A stretch of 64,000 nt of DNA, from positions 70,419 to 134,418 of the forward strand of contig JANWZE010000152.1 of the NCBI GenBank assembly GCA_025054955.1, read 5' to 3'. Below the pieces are notes generated by a model. It did no database searches. It was not told where the DNA came from and saw nothing but the letters and a program-made list of their open reading frames with translations. The first letter of the stretch is position 1, and every line of letters begins with the position of its first letter. Shown one piece after another: positions 13,150-17,884 of this stretch. Both the position numbers and the translations under genes were made by a program. Origin of the DNA: Blastocatellia bacterium. GTDB taxonomy: Bacteria; Acidobacteriota; Blastocatellia; HR10; J050.

Positions 13150-13250
13150 GTTTCACTGAGAAGAGGCTTCCGGTTTGAAGCCCATTGAAGGATCGAGTAT
13201 GAGTTCGAGCTTCAGGCTGCTGTTTCACTGAGAAGAGGCTTCCGGTTTGA
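13150..13250. repeat. Direct repeat, 29 bp identical, period 72. The upstream copy (relative to the gene) is the last 8 codons plus stop of the sigma-54 activator gene.
   Basis: gtttcactgagaagaggcttccggtttga occurs at 13150-13178 and at 13222-13250. The stop codon is at 13225-13227. Confidence 0.9.
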
Positions 13251-14964
13251 TGTCCAGACTGGCCAGCTTGCGGTAGAACGTTGACCGGCCGATGCCCAGC
13301 ATCCGCGCGGCAGTTGTTCGATTGCCGCCCGCCCGCTTGAGCGCAGCCAGCAGCCGCTGTTTTTCATCTTGTGGCAGCTCCTCAGGGGGGCGCGCGCTTC
13401 GGATTTCGGCTGGCAAGTCTTCAGCTTGAATGATCGAACCGCGGCAGCGAATGACAGCATACTCGATGGCGCTTTTCAGCTCACGCACGTTGCCCGGCCA
13501 CTCATACTCCATCAGCATGAGCATAGCATCCTGACTGACGCCGGTAACGGCCTTGCCGCTGACAGCGCGACAGCGACTGAGAAATGATTCGATCAGCAAC
13601 CGGATGTCTTCCCGGCGATGACGCAATGGTGGCAGTTGAATCCGGCCAACGCGAATACGGTAGAGCAGGTCAGCGCGGAATCGCCCGGCCTCGACCTCCT
13701 GCGCCAGATTACGATGTGTTGCGACGATCACACGGACATCCACTTTGCGTGGCATGGATTCACCCAGCCGTGTGATCTCTTTTTCCTGTAGCACGCGCAG
13801 CAGGTTGGTCTGAACGCTGAGCGGCATGTCGCCGATCTCGTCGAGAAAGATCGTGCCGCCGTTGGCTGCCTCAAAAAATCCTTTATGGTCTGTGACGGCG
13901 CCGGTGAACGCGCCACGCCGATGCCCGAACAGTTGACTGGTCAAAATGGATTCGGTCAGCCCGCCGCAGTTGACGGCGATGAACGGTTGGTCCTTGCGCT
14001 GGCTGATTTGATGAATCGCCCGCGCGACCAGCTCTTTGCCTGTGCCTGTTTCGCCCTCAATCAGCACGGTCCAGTCCACCTCTGCGACCTCGCGGATATG
14101 CTGATAGACTTGTTGCATCGCCGGGCTTACGCCAACCAATCCATGAAAGACAGCCTTTTCGTCCAACAGTTGACGCAGGTCATGAAGCTCGGTCACATCA
14201 TAGAAGAAAAAGATGGCGCGCCGCCGATCACGTGGGTCGTCTTGAACTTCGACTTCCATCCAGCGTTGGTGACCCTCGTTGGTGGAGAAGGTCACCAGCA
14301 CTTTGCTGCGCTGTTGTTGCGGGCGCTGCATCATGGCATGGATTTGACGTCGCTCATTCGCCTCAAATGGAAACGCTTCTTGCCAGGGCATGCCCAACGC
14401 TTCATCGGCACAGAGGCCCATTACGTCACGACACGTTTGACTCAAAAACATCACGCGCCCATGCTCGTCGGTAATCGCTGTGCCCAGTCGCAGTTGATTG
14501 AGGATGGAGATCAAATCATCGTGACTTTTTCTGACCTGTTCGTAACTTTGCTCGAGCTTGGTCTTGGAGAGGCTGACTTCCCGAGCCGATTGTAAAATGG
14601 CATGTTTCTCTTCAAACGCCTGTGTGACTTGTTCGAGTAAAAGCAACTTTCTCGAACCGGCGCGGATGGCAATCGCTTGCAAGTAGCGTTCGCACCCGCT
14701 CGGATCGGCTTCCTGCCAGGGGCCGGATTTCAACCAGCCCTCTTGGTTGTCATGCCACCATGCCTCGGCATCGATGAGGAAGTTGTCGAGGAAATCAAAA
14801 GCATGCGCGGGTTGGAAGTCCGTTTGCCCGGTCGCCGCCTGTGGATAAATCCCGCAGAACCACTCAGGGGTCGGACTGAGAATATGAAATGCTCCATTGG
14901 GTTGCCGCTCCAGAACAACGATATCCAAAGCGGCCATCAAATCATTCAAGATCAATTCGTGCAT
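13225..14964 (-). CDS. Sigma-54-dependent transcriptional activator (unknown N-terminal domain, PAS, AAA+, Fis-type HTH; no receiver domain)
   Basis: Walker A in GETGTGKE, the sigma-54 contact loop in GAFTGA, the C-terminal HTH in [20 protein letters not shown], and a PAS-like [17 protein letters not shown]. Confidence 0.92.
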
Positions 14965-15079
14965 GATGAGGCTCTCACAGCATCGCTCGCCTGAGCGTCA
15001 GGAACGCTTCCTCCGCTCGTGCATGATAGTTCTTACGAGAGCATCGCTCGCGTGAGCGTCAGGAACGCTTCCTCCACCC
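14959..15079. repeat. Tandem duplication of about 60 bp, two copies, spanning the GTPase gene 3' end and the activator start codon
   Basis: Copy 1 is 14959-15018 and copy 2 is 15019-15079. They share cgtgcatgat and agcatcgctcgc[c/g]tgagcgtcaggaacgcttcctcc. Confidence 0.9.
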
Positions 15080-15527: not shown

Positions 15528-15543
15528 AGTTTTCGGATCACCT
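15516..15543. repeat. 14-bp tandem duplication across the OmpA-gene stop and the GTPase start
   Basis: ttttcggatcacag followed by ttttcggatcacct. It contains the GTPase GTG start (15525-15527) and the upstream gene's TGA (15538-15540). Confidence 0.8.
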
Positions 15544-17301
15544 CCTACTCACATCGCGAAGGCTGATCGTGAACGAGACCCGACGATTCACGGCCTTGTC
15601 TGATTCTGTCTTTTCCGGTTGCAACGGTTCACGCGCGCCGAGGCCACGCGCCGTGAGCGCGCTGGCCTTGACACCTTGAGCGATTAACCATGAGCGCACT
15701 TTCTCAGCGCGTTGTTGACTGAGCCGGAGATTCGCTTCATCTGATCCGCTGGCATCCGTATGACCGCTCACCGTGACCTCAACCGCGTGTTCGATGGCAG
15801 CAGCCGCTTGATCGAGTTGGCGAAGCGCAGCGGCCAGCTCGTTCAGCATGCGCTCTTGGCCGGGCGACAGCGTTGTTGTGCCGCCAGCAAACCGGATCGT
15901 CTGCGATTGCAATGCCTCAATTTTGGATTCTAGCGCCTGTTTATCCAGGTCAATCAGTTGTTCTTCACGCCAAGCTGTAATGCCGGCAACAGCCCAGGCC
16001 AGCCGTCGCGCGTCAACGATCCAACGATGTGGCGCCGCGCCGACGGCAACCAATGCGCTATTCTGAACGCGCAGCGACACGCCCGGCGGCGGTTGCAACA
16101 GCTTCTCGGCTCGCTGACGGATGAACGTCGGTTCTAACGCTTGATACGGTTCCCATTGACCGACGACGCGGTCGGGATCGAGCTTGCTTTCTCGCAGCAA
16201 CGCCTGCGGATCAGCAGCCAGCGGGTCGCGCAAGCCAGCGACAACGAATCGGCCGCTCTGCTTGAACGCGTTTGTGACGACAATGCCCGGTTCGGCGCGA
16301 AGCCGTTCAAGGTAATCATGCCAGCGCCAGTTATCACGGAGCGTCCACCATCCCCATACACCCAGCGCCACCACCAGCAACGCGATCAAGCCGACCAGCG
16401 CAGGCGAGAGTTTCTTCGTCGTGGGTTGATATTGCGTTTGAAGACACGCTTGCAGATAAGGCCGCGTGGCTTCAAACGGTGCGTCATCACCGGCGAAGGC
16501 TTCCAGCGCCGCGCGTTGCGTTAGATGAATGCGCTCCAGTGCGTCACGAAACACCGCGCGCAGTTCAACCGGTGCGTGCCCGCGAATCACGCCAGCCAGT
16601 AGGGCGTGGGGCCCTTGCTCGATCCACACGGTGAGTTCACCAACCTGCAATGTTTCCAGCTCATCATGCGTGCCCAGCGTGAATGAGTCGCGCACGAAAT
16701 CTTGAATCGCCGTGAGCATGCCGGAAATCATATCGGCATCTCTTGGCGCGGCGGTCTCGGCGGCCACGTGTTGCAGCAGCAACCCGGTTCGTTTGTGAAT
16801 CAAGAATACCTGCTCAACCCGATAGAGCAGGCTGTGAAGCATGATCACTTCAGCCAGCGGCTTGCCTGTGCGACGCGCTTCCAGTCGCCACTGAATGCTT
16901 TGCCAGGAGAGGCTCCGTTCAAGCACTTGATTGAATGATTCCAGCGCCTCGCGCAATGCCGTGGTGACCGCCTTCCGGATCGCCGGTCCGATCACCGGAA
17001 AGATCGCGTCGGTGATCGGCTGTGGATCACGTTTGACGGAGATGGTCAGCGCCTGTTGCACGGTGGGCAGTAGCGCTTCAGTCAGTTGTTGGTCTTTGCG
17101 CGTGCGCAGCACAATGGCATCAGGCAGGACTTCGCTGATACCTTCAGCGTGGCGCAGATGGTCTACCCGCTCGCGCAGTTGCACAAGCTCAGTTTGCTCC
17201 GGCCCAATGAGCAGATGGCGGAGCTCGTCCAGTTCACGGTCATCAGCATGGCGATCGAATGAAACGTCCACAGACACATTCGTCGCAGATGTATCAGGCA
17301 T
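15538..17301 (-). CDS. Single-pass membrane protein: cytoplasmic N-terminal region with a Roadblock/LC7-like segment, one TM helix, a periplasmic region and a C-terminal OmpA/MotB peptidoglycan-binding domain
   Basis: OmpA-like VSGHTDASGSDEANLRLSQQRAEKV..NRRVSF. TM helix LSPALVGLIALLVVALGVWGWW. GAGGAG lies upstream of the ATG at 17301. The Roadblock call is inferred only from the sequence pattern. Confidence 0.85.
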   Translation of the reverse strand: MPDTSATNVSVDVSFDRHADDRELDELRHLLIGPEQTELVQLRERVDHLRHAEGISEVLPDAIVLRTRKDQQLTEALLPTVQQALTISVKRDPQPITDAIFPVIGPAIRKAVTTALREALESFNQVLERSLSWQSIQWRLEARRTGKPLAEVIMLHSLLYRVEQVFLIHKRTGLLLQHVAAETAAPRDADMISGMLTAIQDFVRDSFTLGTHDELETLQVGELTVWIEQGPHALLAGVIRGHAPVELRAVFRDALERIHLTQRAALEAFAGDDAPFEATRPYLQACLQTQYQPTTKKLSPALVGLIALLVVALGVWGWWTLRDNWRWHDYLERLRAEPGIVVTNAFKQSGRFVVAGLRDPLAADPQALLRESKLDPDRVVGQWEPYQALEPTFIRQRAEKLLQPPPGVSLRVQNSALVAVGAAPHRWIVDARRLAWAVAGITAWREEQLIDLDKQALESKIEALQSQTIRFAGGTTTLSPGQERMLNELAAALRQLDQAAAAIEHAVEVTVSGHTDASGSDEANLRLSQQRAEKVRSWLIAQGVKASALTARGLGAREPLQPEKTESDKAVNRRVSFTISLRDVSRR

Positions 17302-17884
17302 TGCCTAACTCCTCGGAGCCGGGCAGCGTGAATTCGTTGTTCAATCGCATGGCGACTTCCGTAAGCAAGTTGGCAAGCGCCGTGCGAGCTACCTTCTCAT
17401 TGCGGAGTTCGTGGACAGCCCGTTCCAACGTGGCCGATAGGTCTTCATGCCGGCGTTGTATGTCATCGTTCAGGACCCGCACCTGGTCGAGCCATTGTTG
17501 ACGCAGCTCGCGATGCTTTCTGTTCATTTCATCGTCCAACTGAGTCGCTCGCCGTTCCATAGCGCCGGCCAGCTCGTGCAGTTGTCGCGCCAGTTCATTG
17601 CTGGAGGCTGTTCGCTCGTCGCGTTCGCTCATCAACCGGTGCGTGAGCGATTCGATTTCGCCGCGAAAATAATCGGCGAGCGCATCAAACCGTTTGCGAA
17701 TGTCCTCGCGCAGGTCAGCCGCTTCGCGTGACAGACGTTCTTCCAAACGCGTGAACCGCTTCTCATATTCGCGCGCCTGCGCGCCGAATAGAATATCGCG
17801 AACTTTATCGAGACTCCCACTGCCGTGAGCTTCCCCTGTAGTAGCTTGATTCGTGCTTTCCATCGCTCCGGTTAGTTCTGACAT
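17294..17884 (-). CDS. Coiled-coil protein sharing an N-terminal motif with the downstream OmpA-domain protein
   Basis: The composition is heptad-rich and rich in R, E and L. The start is moved to the ATG at 17884 (GGGAGAGGAG upstream). The stop overlaps the next gene by 8 nt. Confidence 0.7.
   Translation of the reverse strand: MSELTGAMESTNQATTGEAHGSGSLDKVRDILFGAQAREYEKRFTRLEERLSREAADLREDIRKRFDALADYFRGEIESLTHRLMSERDERTASSNELARQLHELAGAMERRATQLDDEMNRKHRELRQQWLDQVRVLNDDIQRRHEDLSATLERAVHELRNEKVARTALANLLTEVAMRLNNEFTLPGSEELGNA

Follow-up and report, generated by a model that had tools for sequence, protein, structure and literature searches.

We analysed a 64,000-nt stretch of the Blastocatellia bacterium contig JANWZE010000152.1 (assembly GCA_025054955.1, positions 70,419 to 134,418 of the forward strand), hereafter the window, in which four minus-strand genes encode a coiled-coil protein, a membrane protein with an OmpA-like domain, a Ras-like GTPase and a sigma-54 activator. 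The Rup family of Ras-like GTPases in prokaryotes was defined by Wuichet and Sogaard-Andersen (Genome Biol Evol 2015, PMC4316618). The Group 1 neighbourhood that they described consists of a cytoplasmic coiled-coil protein (DUFY), a protein (DUFX) in which a conserved unknown domain and an inner-membrane helix are joined to a C-terminal OmpA domain, a Rup GTPase without the catalytic G3 glutamine, and a signalling output protein. Both the order of the genes (DUFY>DUFX:OmpA>Rup) and the absence of the G3 glutamine agree with this description, and on these sequence grounds we assign the locus to the Group 1 Rup (Rup1) operons, as a sigma-54 activator variant of a system described in silico. The original prediction, made from the DNA sequence alone, knew of no described system of this kind; that suggestion of novelty fails, since the same neighbourhood is the Group 1 Rup system of that computational study. 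The aspects that go beyond PMC4316618 are the sigma-54 output and a predicted Roadblock/longin fold.

The four genes and their products

The four genes are tightly linked between 13225 and 17884, exactly where they had been placed. On the basis of ORF (open reading frame) and Pfam analyses, complemented by synteny for gene 1 and hydropathy for gene 2, we identified gene 1 (17294-17884) as encoding the 196-aa cytoplasmic coiled-coil protein (DUFY), gene 2 (15538-17301) a 587-aa single-pass inner-membrane protein (DUFX:OmpA), gene 3 (15033-15527, GTG start) the 164-aa Rup1 Ras-family GTPase, and gene 4 (13225-14964) a 579-aa sigma-54 enhancer-binding protein without a receiver domain. The ORF of gene 1 extends over 17294-17908; the ATG at 17884, which is preceded by a GGAGAGGAG Shine-Dalgarno sequence, yields 196 aa and is also the start called in relatives and in the public record. 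The spacings reported earlier were all correct: genes 1 and 2 overlap by 8 nt (17294-17301), genes 2 and 3 are separated by 10 nt (15528-15537), and genes 3 and 4 by 68 nt (14965-15032).

The 68-nt gap does hold the duplication that had been noticed in it. The junction of the GTPase and activator genes is tandemly duplicated with a period of 61 nt (14979-15075, minus strand), so that the 3' end of the GTPase gene and the start of the activator gene are copied (14979-15014 and 15040-15075, 97% identical). This duplication is specific to the lineage. It is absent from the related loci L026, L027 and L028, in which the GTPase gene abuts or overlaps the gene downstream of it (as an ATGA in L026), and the gap therefore appears to be a recent, lineage-specific event, with translational coupling as the ancestral state. 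A consensus scan detected no promoter-like or terminator-like site on the minus strand between 13225 and 17900. Since no such internal site was found and genes overlap in the relatives, a single transcript for all four genes is favoured. A candidate sigma-70-type operon promoter, TTGACG-18-TAAAAT, is located upstream of gene 1 (17987-18016, minus strand), identified solely by a 10/12 match to the consensus.

The junction duplication is one of four two-copy tandem duplications of 57-72 nt in the window (14979-15075, 13146-13256, 49979-50086 and 58255-58387), each of which spans or abuts the stop codon of a gene: the GTPase at its junction with the activator, the activator at its 3' end, the ORF at 48794-49984 and the ORF at 56638-58314. 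L029 shares the first two, which L026-L028 lack. These duplications are probably neutral, surviving only where the reading frame stays intact, and four of them in 64 kb suggests a high duplication rate in the source genome.

The gene 3 product matched the Pfam Ras family (E = 2e-32), which bears out its original description as a Ras-like GTPase. It carries the G1 (GTSAVGKT), G3 (WDLHGED), G4 (NKSD) and G5 (SAK) motifs. In twenty GTPase orthologues, the position of Ras Q61 is occupied by E, D, Q or K, and bulky residues are found at the position of Ras G12, with H-Ras as the reference for both positions. As judged from these alignments, the nucleotide-binding motifs are intact and equivalents of Ras Gly12 and Gln61 are missing. 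Rup1 is the bacterial group that clusters with eukaryotic Rab, Ras, Rho and Ran and with Asgard RasL (PMC4316618 and later literature).

The 587-aa gene 2 product contains one transmembrane helix (aa 298-320; 16342-16410, minus strand), the sole 19-residue Kyte-Doolittle window above 1.6 (maximum 2.39), followed by an OmpA-like peptidoglycan-binding domain (aa 471-573; 15583-15891, minus strand; PF00691, E = 6e-20), both as first described. The OmpA domain showed sequence matches to YiaD, YfiB, Pal and the MotB/PomB domains. The protein has no N-terminal signal peptide, its residues 1-470 gave no Pfam or NCBIfam match, and no PDB sequence match was obtained outside the OmpA domain. The family comprises more than 5570 homologues at E ≤ 1e-3, all of them named just "OmpA family protein", and the closest named homologues come from Acidobacteriota, Desulfobacterota, Cyanobacteria and Entotheonellia.

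An AlphaFold model covering aa 1-300 of this protein, built from 71 homologues, together with Foldseek comparisons, predicted a Roadblock/longin-like domain in the cytoplasmic part (aa ~149-291; 16429-16857, minus strand). The predicted local distance difference test (pLDDT) values were mostly ~80-90 for aa ~160-290, with ~57-73 in aa 181-220. Residues 1-131 were modelled as long helices of low confidence, and block-mean pLDDT was 62-87 in aa 131-180. The modelled order of helices (H) and strands (E) was H149-158, E161-169, E175-180, H189-208, E218-229, E233-240, H246-267 and H274-291, and the predicted topology of the domain was alpha-beta-beta-alpha-beta-beta-beta-alpha. When the domain was compared with the PDB by Foldseek, almost all of the ~50 best matches were Roadblock/longin-type GTPase partners (E-values 6e-5 to 4e-3). 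They included the C-terminal domains of RagA/RagC and Gtr, LAMTOR and Ego subunits, Mon1-Ccz1, TRAPP subunits, MglB (3t12, 1j3w, 3t1r), the longin domain of Sec22b (target TM 0.77), zeta-COP, sigma-adaptins and Asgard Roadblock3, with no PAS or GAF structure among them. The Roadblock/longin fold that had been proposed for the cytoplasmic part is thus the one returned by the AlphaFold check suggested for it, and a fold of this type in aa ~150-290 is supported as a prediction by the model and the structural matches.

A further conserved element of this protein is the motif FPVIGPAIRKA (aa 99-109; 16975-17007), in which P102, G105, P106 and R109 are invariant across the 71 homologues. The motif falls in the low-confidence helical stretch, N-terminal of the Roadblock-like domain, and could provide a contact or an arginine finger to a GTPase without Gly12 and Gln61 equivalents.

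The gene 1 product gave only weak coiled-coil or apolipoprotein-type matches in Pfam and showed no hydrophobic segment in the Kyte-Doolittle analysis. Its conserved N-terminal motif is VDKIRDILFGxQ. The N-terminal motif that had been noted in both proteins 1 and 2 is real and conserved within each family: R29, L32, F33, G34 and Q36 are invariant in the DUFY family, and L27, R28 and L30 are nearly invariant in the DUFX family. The claim that the two proteins are paralogues was not supported, and we rejected it: BLASTP detected no similarity, and the hhalign alignment (VDKIRDILFGxQ...RLE versus LxELRxLLxGPEQ...RLD, 48 columns) had a probability of 5.6% and was limited to an N-terminal motif of ~15 residues. 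A short interaction motif common to both proteins is plausible from the alignment.

The gene 4 product is a sigma-54 activator with a PAS domain and without a receiver domain, as Pfam confirmed. A canonical PAS_4 domain (aa 155-261; 14182-14502) is followed by the sigma-54 AAA+ domain, lid and Fis-type helix-turn-helix (HTH) (aa 276-568; 13261-14139, both minus strand). The Sigma54_activat match covers aa 276-442 (PF00158, E = 7e-71), with the Walker A sequence GETGTGK at aa 304 and GAFTGA at aa 351, and HTH_8 matched with E = 2e-13. The best NCBIfam matches were PrdR, NifA and NtrC, all below their equivalog cutoffs. Pfam returned neither a receiver domain nor any match in aa 1-150. The N-terminal region had been called unrecognised, which remains correct with respect to Pfam; it is nevertheless predicted to adopt a divergent PAS-like fold. 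The AlphaFold model of aa 1-150 (pLDDT 83) displayed a PAS-like core and a 35-residue helix, and Foldseek against the PDB returned exclusively PAS/LOV matches. AlphaFold, Foldseek and profile comparisons together delimit a Rup-associated N-terminal PAS-like domain with a long C-terminal helix (aa 1-149; 14518-14964, minus strand), referred to below as N-PAS, which contains a near-invariant Gln125. This residue sits on the long helix after the PAS core (H115-149 in the model) and corresponds to the conserved glutamine of the 2015 paper; its column is at least 90% conserved in 148 representative proteins, and it is invariant among four sigma-54-type activators.

Conservation, outputs and related systems

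A genome scan with the non-OmpA part of the 587-aa protein as query, at one genome per species, yielded 25 loci from Acidobacteriota, Verrucomicrobiota, Desulfobacterota, Thiothrix, Granulosicoccus and Deferribacteraceae. All four genes were present in 18 of them, most of the others ending at contig edges, and in 24 of the 25 a gene 1 homologue is found upstream of DUFX. Scanning metagenomes with the activator N-domain as seed gave 80 further loci; at least 34 contain all four genes, and most of the rest are too short to judge. The four-gene neighbourhood recurs in more than 50 of the 105 loci from other phyla. By this check of gene order, the four genes, which the original prediction had treated as one module, are conserved as a unit in many phyla. 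The sigma-54 activator is retained in the close relatives L027 and L028, and three loci (L057, L073 and L080) have an N-PAS gene without an adjacent GTPase.

Some loci depart from the common arrangement. In the Terriglobia and Bryobacteraceae loci L008 (10204-11526) and L009 (3930-5255), the Rup and hybrid-kinase pair is split from DUFY-DUFX by a gene whose product has a metallo-beta-lactamase fold and a C-terminal receiver domain; this protein may be the cognate response regulator of this variant. The Granulosicoccus locus L023 contains two Rup paralogues (2424-3014 and 7230-7739) and a shorter DUFX ORF (422 aa), and no coiled-coil or N-PAS gene was detected in it.

The fourth gene varies in its C-terminal part and is recognisable by its N-terminus. 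Residues 1-140 of the activator matched the N-termini of output proteins in 19 of the 25 genome loci (E 1e-25 to 1e-8); the C-terminal parts of the other fourth-gene products were HD-GYP, HisKA/HATPase, a receiver plus Hpt hybrid kinase, GAF-HisKA_3, GGDEF or none. A word-indexed search with the single N-domain sequence gave no matches and one with a 19-sequence profile gave 10; an exhaustive profile search found 1282 representative clusters carrying the N-PAS domain. The best 148 of these clusters contained HATPase_c (78), HisKA (64), receiver (28), Hpt (18), GGDEF (8), EAL (5), HD_5 (4), SpoIIE (PP2C; 3), Sigma54_activat (2) and Pkinase (Ser/Thr kinase; 1) domains. The predicted PAS-like fold appears to mark all Rup output proteins, and the N-PAS domain appears, from these sequence matches, to be the common input of interchangeable Rup outputs. 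The sigma-54 type accounts for two of the 148 representative clusters and three of the 80 metagenome loci, and is a rare output (~1-4% of those sampled) of a modular family. P0262 and P0267, the two sigma-54 proteins among the representatives, also follow DUFY-DUFX-Rup and are 47-48% identical to the window protein. Among 158 family members there was no GTPase-N-PAS fusion; where the domain lies at residues ~130-290, it follows other N-termini. The designation of the activator as the output, proposed at the outset, is upheld by the missing receiver domain and by an N-terminal domain that is the hallmark of Rup output proteins.

Stand-alone N-PAS proteins of 140-200 aa with no output domain were also observed (L002 8212-8808, L004 4768-5274, P0122 and P0124). 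Because such proteins occur in some Rup operons, they suggest that the domain can act as an adaptor alone.

The window locus resembles the Group 1 Rup system in its coiled-coil DUFY, its DUFX with a transmembrane helix and OmpA domain, and its Ras-like GTPase without the G3 glutamine, all in the same order; in addition, the G3 aspartate, the canonical G1, G4 and G5 motifs and the N-terminal glutamine of the output (Gln125) are shared. The order DUFY>DUFX:OmpA>Rup is recorded for cyanobacteria, proteobacteria and Nitrospira (Table S2, PMC4316618). The output described there is typically a GGDEF/EAL protein or a histidine kinase with an invariant glutamine in its N-terminal region, whereas that of the window is a sigma-54 AAA+/HTH_8 protein. 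The word "typically" leaves room for such an output, which makes the window a variant of Group 1 and does not exclude it from the group. DUFX and the output N-domain were unknown folds in that study, whereas here they are predicted to be Roadblock/longin-like and PAS-like, respectively.

MglA/MglB of Myxococcus and Thermus likewise pairs a small Ras-superfamily GTPase with a Roadblock-fold regulator, and the MglB structures 3t12 and 1j3w were among the best fold matches to the gene 2 domain. The GTPase of the window is, however, outside the MglA family; it keeps the G3 aspartate (WDLHG), which is missing in MglA, and matches Pfam Ras. MglB is a free dimer, whereas the window has no separate Roadblock gene and the Roadblock-like fold is predicted to lie inside a peptidoglycan-anchored membrane protein. 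The output of MglA/MglB is polarity; that of the window is presumably transcription. The actinobacterial conservon CvnA-D, to which the 2015 authors themselves likened Group 1 Rup (PMC4316618), also joins a membrane sensor, a Roadblock protein and a small GTPase in one module. It differs in consisting of a histidine kinase with an LPxR tail (CvnA), a Roadblock protein (CvnB), a DUF742 protein (CvnC) and an MglA-type GTPase (CvnD). In the window, none of the four proteins matched HisKA/HATPase or DUF742, the sensor and the Roadblock domain appear fused, and the GTPase belongs to another family than the MglA Group 2 GTPase of the conservon. The eukaryotic and Asgard platforms Rag-Ragulator, Mon1-Ccz1 and TRAPP provided the best structural matches to the modelled gene 2 domain, but they show no sequence-level homology to it and the context in the window is a bacterial inner membrane.

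Among receiver-less sigma-54 activators, the NifA, DhaR, PrdR and TyrR types share a PAS domain, an AAA+ domain with GAFTGA and a Fis-type HTH with the window protein, which differs in its additional N-terminal PAS-like domain, the Rup hallmark. Its presumed input is a G protein, in contrast to a small ligand or partner kinase. A functional analogy is offered by YfiBNR, in which an OmpA-like peptidoglycan-binding protein controls a cytoplasmic signalling enzyme. There, as proposed for the window, an OmpA-like peptidoglycan-binding domain starts a pathway that ends in a signalling output; YfiB, however, is an outer-membrane lipoprotein that acts via the periplasmic YfiR, and no GTPase takes part.

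Candidate sigma-54 promoters and the downstream neighbourhood

Downstream of the activator gene, the window encodes, in order, a Kbp-like LysM protein, a 71-aa ORF, DUF4197, MscL and a LonC-type protease. Exact matches to GGCAY-N5-TTGCW occur four times in the 64-kb window, compared with 1.1 expected, and the two intergenic regions just downstream of the operon contain two of the four, both on its strand. The candidate sigma-54 promoter P1 (CGGCACAGTGCTTGCT; 12728-12743, minus strand), recognised by consensus and conservation, is located 236 nt upstream of a gene for a 156-aa YgaU/Kbp-like LysM protein (12022-12492, minus strand). This protein was identified by Pfam and aligns over its full length with the YgaU/Kbp-type model NF008399, below the cutoff of the model; a hairpin and T-run follow the gene (11825-11862). 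The candidate promoter P2 (TGGCACAGGCTTTGCA; 11418-11433, minus strand), a perfect match to the consensus TGGCAC-N5-TTGCA, is conserved in relatives and lies 160 nt upstream of the 71-aa ORF (11043-11258, minus strand), which has a weak DUF2267-like match and is called as a gene in relatives too. The P1 and P2 cores are kept as GGCAT-N5-TTGCA in L030-L035 (~87% protein identity); the flanks diverge.

An initial search for k-mers and palindromes common to the regions upstream of P1 and P2 revealed no convincing site; the sequence TGAGACA emerged after comparison with L036. TGAGACA/TGTCTCA occurs five times in the 64 kb, and three of these sites are positioned 90-135 nt upstream of P1 or P2 (Poisson P ~1e-8 for this clustering, with a motif chosen post hoc). 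The non-sigma-54 loci give the background: 3 sites per 286 kb in those from genomes and 31 per 538 kb in those from metagenomes. The candidate activator-binding region upstream of P1 (12845-12883, minus strand) contains TGAGACA and has a similar conserved block in L031; the candidate sites upstream of P2 (11520-11590, minus strand) include the 26-nt element TGTCTCAGGCGGGACAACATGACACA (11545-11570). TGTCTC/GAGACA repeats also cluster directly after the activator gene in the distant sigma-54-type Rup loci L036, L038 and L056. In L036, TGTCTCgatcTGAGACAcgcaTGAGACAgataaacTGTCTCA is found ~170 nt before TTGGCACGACCCTTGAA and a mechanosensitive-channel gene, and in L056, TGTCTCGCTGGAACAACGATGAGACA... 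is found ~100 nt before TGGCCTCGATATTGCA and a hybrid PAS-kinase gene; across these two loci the repeats lie ~85-175 nt upstream of -24/-12-like elements; L038 has three TGAGACA sites. L056 carries a 26-nt element almost identical to those located upstream of P2 in L031 (TGTCTCAGGTGGAACAACATGAGACA) and the window. The pattern TGTCTC-N8-16-GA[GCA]ACA, searched in 1.03 Mb of fetched DNA, was restricted to the sites of the window, L031, L036, L038 and L056 and three strays. The TGTCTC/GAGACA repeats are a candidate activator-binding site, and P1 and P2 are the likely targets of the activator.

The 161-nt leader between P2 and the 71-aa ORF (11255-11415, minus strand) can form two long hairpins (-85 kcal/mol, z = -7.6), and none of 200 shuffled sequences was as stable. 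Mean column identity to the ~87% relatives is 93% in the aligned P2 promoter-leader versus 84% upstream of the LysM gene, and the few changes in the leader are mostly pair-preserving. Rfam contained no known RNA within 10700-18600. The leader may be a regulatory RNA element or attenuator. Between the LysM gene and P2, an array of ATGAGC hexamers (11610-11680) would read on the plus strand as a His/Glu-rich peptide.

The further neighbourhood was compared among loci. In L036, DUF4197 lies upstream of the operon, and an MscS-like channel and MscL lie downstream. MscL or DUF4197 was found within 6 kb in none of the 25 non-sigma-54 genome loci, and neither was near the operon in L038, L056 or L089. 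The LonC-type protease homologue of the window (816 aa; 6658-9108) is downstream of MscL, and the cluster of LysM, 71-aa, MscL and LonC genes is also present in L029 and L030. On the other side of the operon, a divergent 172-aa ORF (18517-19035, plus strand) stays beside the operon in the relatives L026 and L027; its product starts with a hydrophobic, signal-like segment and matched no family. At its 5' end (20521-20659), the pyruvate kinase ORF contains 7- and 21-nt repeats that encode TDDGPRI repeats.

Proposed pathway and its alternatives

These features are consistent with a pathway that runs from protein 2 through Rup and the activator to P1 and P2, and we regard this Group 1 Rup G-protein operon as the probable interpretation. 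Protein 2, held in the inner membrane with its OmpA domain on peptidoglycan, would report the state of the envelope across the membrane. Its Roadblock/longin domain would set the nucleotide state of Rup in the role of GTPase-activating protein (GAP), guanine nucleotide exchange factor (GEF) or both, in the manner of MglB, Ragulator or Mon1-Ccz1, and its N-terminal helices together with the coiled-coil protein would probably serve as a scaffold. Rup-GTP would then bind the PAS-like N-domain of the activator, whose long helix would release the AAA+ ring or promote its assembly. The activator would in turn bind the TGTCTC/GAGACA repeats and open the sigma-54 promoters P1 and P2 immediately downstream, switching on the YgaU/Kbp-like LysM protein and the 71-aa protein. 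The binding partners, the direction of control and the sensed signal in this scheme are all what we infer from the data above. The signal may be osmotic or turgor-related, which is the weakest and most thinly supported step.

Several observations weigh against this interpretation. The mean pLDDT of the gene 2 model is 60.7 overall and good for aa ~160-290 only, the Foldseek E-values for the domain are moderate (6e-5 and weaker), and no Pfam Roadblock model matches the 587-aa protein. The GAP, GEF and effector roles were assigned by inference. We found no experimental study of any Rup1 system in the literature, and no paper on Rup1 function after 2015; since then "Rup1" has recurred only as a phylogenetic label. 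As for the targets, a loose scan for sigma-54 sites (up to two mismatches) gave 44 matches versus 46 expected, which is not above chance, and as this total is uninformative we retained only exact and conserved sites. The TGAGACA motif was picked after the data were seen; the repeat cluster of L038 has no recognisable -24/-12 element, and L089, also of the sigma-54 type, has no TGAGACA cluster. The LysM and 71-aa genes are not adjacent to the operon in the ~87% relatives, and P1 and P2 could also serve other sigma-54 activators encoded in the genome. The osmotic theme itself amounts to two of five sigma-54-type lineages with MscL and DUF4197, and to an MscS-like channel in one.

The alternative closest to the proposed pathway concerns the assignment of the GAP. 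In a speculation put forward in PMC4316618, the output N-domain is the GAP and inserts a glutamine (here Gln125) in trans into the Rup active site, which would leave the Roadblock domain as a GEF or scaffold only. The G3 motif without Gln in the window and in most GTPase orthologues fits this idea, as does the conservation of Gln125 described above. In the model, however, Gln125 occupies the long helix, a place characteristic of signalling helices or dimer interfaces; in one of 18 aligned orthologues (L020) it is replaced by Arg, and the GTPase of L002 has a Gln of its own at the Q61 position. Moreover, Roadblock proteins such as MglB are established GAPs. We consider a glutamine in trans possible though improbable, and it would be compatible with the same overall pathway. 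The Roadblock/longin call could itself be false, with the gene 2 domain being a PAS-, GAF- or profilin-like sensor of small molecules and the GTPase being regulated elsewhere, for example by FPVIGPAIRKA or the coiled-coil protein. Roadblock, longin, PAS and GAF domains are all small alpha/beta sandwiches, the model confidence is moderate and the E-values modest, sequence searches gave no match to Roadblock families, and the invariant P102-x2-G105-P106-x2-R109 lies outside the domain. Against this, the best PDB matches were almost all of the Roadblock/longin type. Since the same search returned only PAS/LOV structures for the activator N-domain and Roadblock/longin structures for the gene 2 domain, Foldseek appears to discriminate these folds, and a misassigned domain is unlikely.

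It is less likely still that the activator is regulated independently, by ligand sensing through its PAS domains, and that the GTPase module serves polarity, envelope assembly or localisation, as MglA does. Consistent with such a separation are the canonical PAS_4 domain of the activator, the N-PAS genes without an adjacent GTPase in L057, L073 and L080, and the control of localisation, not transcription, by MglA-type GTPases (PMC4316618). It is opposed by the occurrence of N-PAS beside Rup, DUFX and DUFY in dozens of loci, whatever the output domain, by stand-alone N-PAS proteins of ~170-200 aa within the same operon in L002 and L004, and by the overlap of the GTPase and activator genes in relatives. 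The single transmembrane helix and C-terminal OmpA-like domain of protein 2 are also those of MotB, PomB and TssL, which could make it the anchor of an envelope machine, such as a stator or secretion system, whose assembly the GTPase controls. Yet the annotated neighbours (window ORFs and the L026-L038 gene tables) include no MotA/ExbB/TolQ-like or secretion genes, the transmembrane helix has no acidic residue, and the constant partner is a signalling output protein. With neither partner genes among these annotated neighbours nor an acidic transmembrane residue, we rejected a stator or secretion role as very improbable.

The preferred pathway, from protein 2 to Rup, the activator and P1/P2, presents the locus as a rare sigma-54 variant of the Rup1 family with new, testable structural and regulatory predictions. 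The predicted Roadblock/longin domain is a concrete candidate for the regulator of the GTPase, and the PAS-like domain a candidate effector interface. Transcriptional output from nearby sigma-54 promoters would make the state of the G protein readable by a simple reporter fusion, and together the candidate sites on the DNA and the promoters outline a small regulon that can be tested.

More tentatively, and with greater doubt than belief, Rup1 systems might represent transmembrane G-protein pathways in which a peptidoglycan-anchored Roadblock/longin protein passes an envelope or turgor signal to a Ras-like GTPase and from there to interchangeable effectors with a PAS-like domain. The effector here would be a sigma-54 activator of osmotic and envelope genes (the Kbp-like gene in the window, a mechanosensitive channel in L036), and such pathways might be a bacterial counterpart, or even the source, of the logic by which Ras-family GTPases and longin/Roadblock proteins operate in eukaryotes. 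No bacterial GTPases are closer to eukaryotic Ras, Rab, Rho and Ran than those of Rup1. MglA-MglB, Rag-Ragulator and the Rab GEFs are so far the known cases in which a Ras-type GTPase is paired with a Roadblock/longin regulator; should the Roadblock/longin link prove correct, this pairing would reach the Ras-proper branch in bacteria, an extension that, if true, bears on the origin of eukaryotic GTPase regulation.

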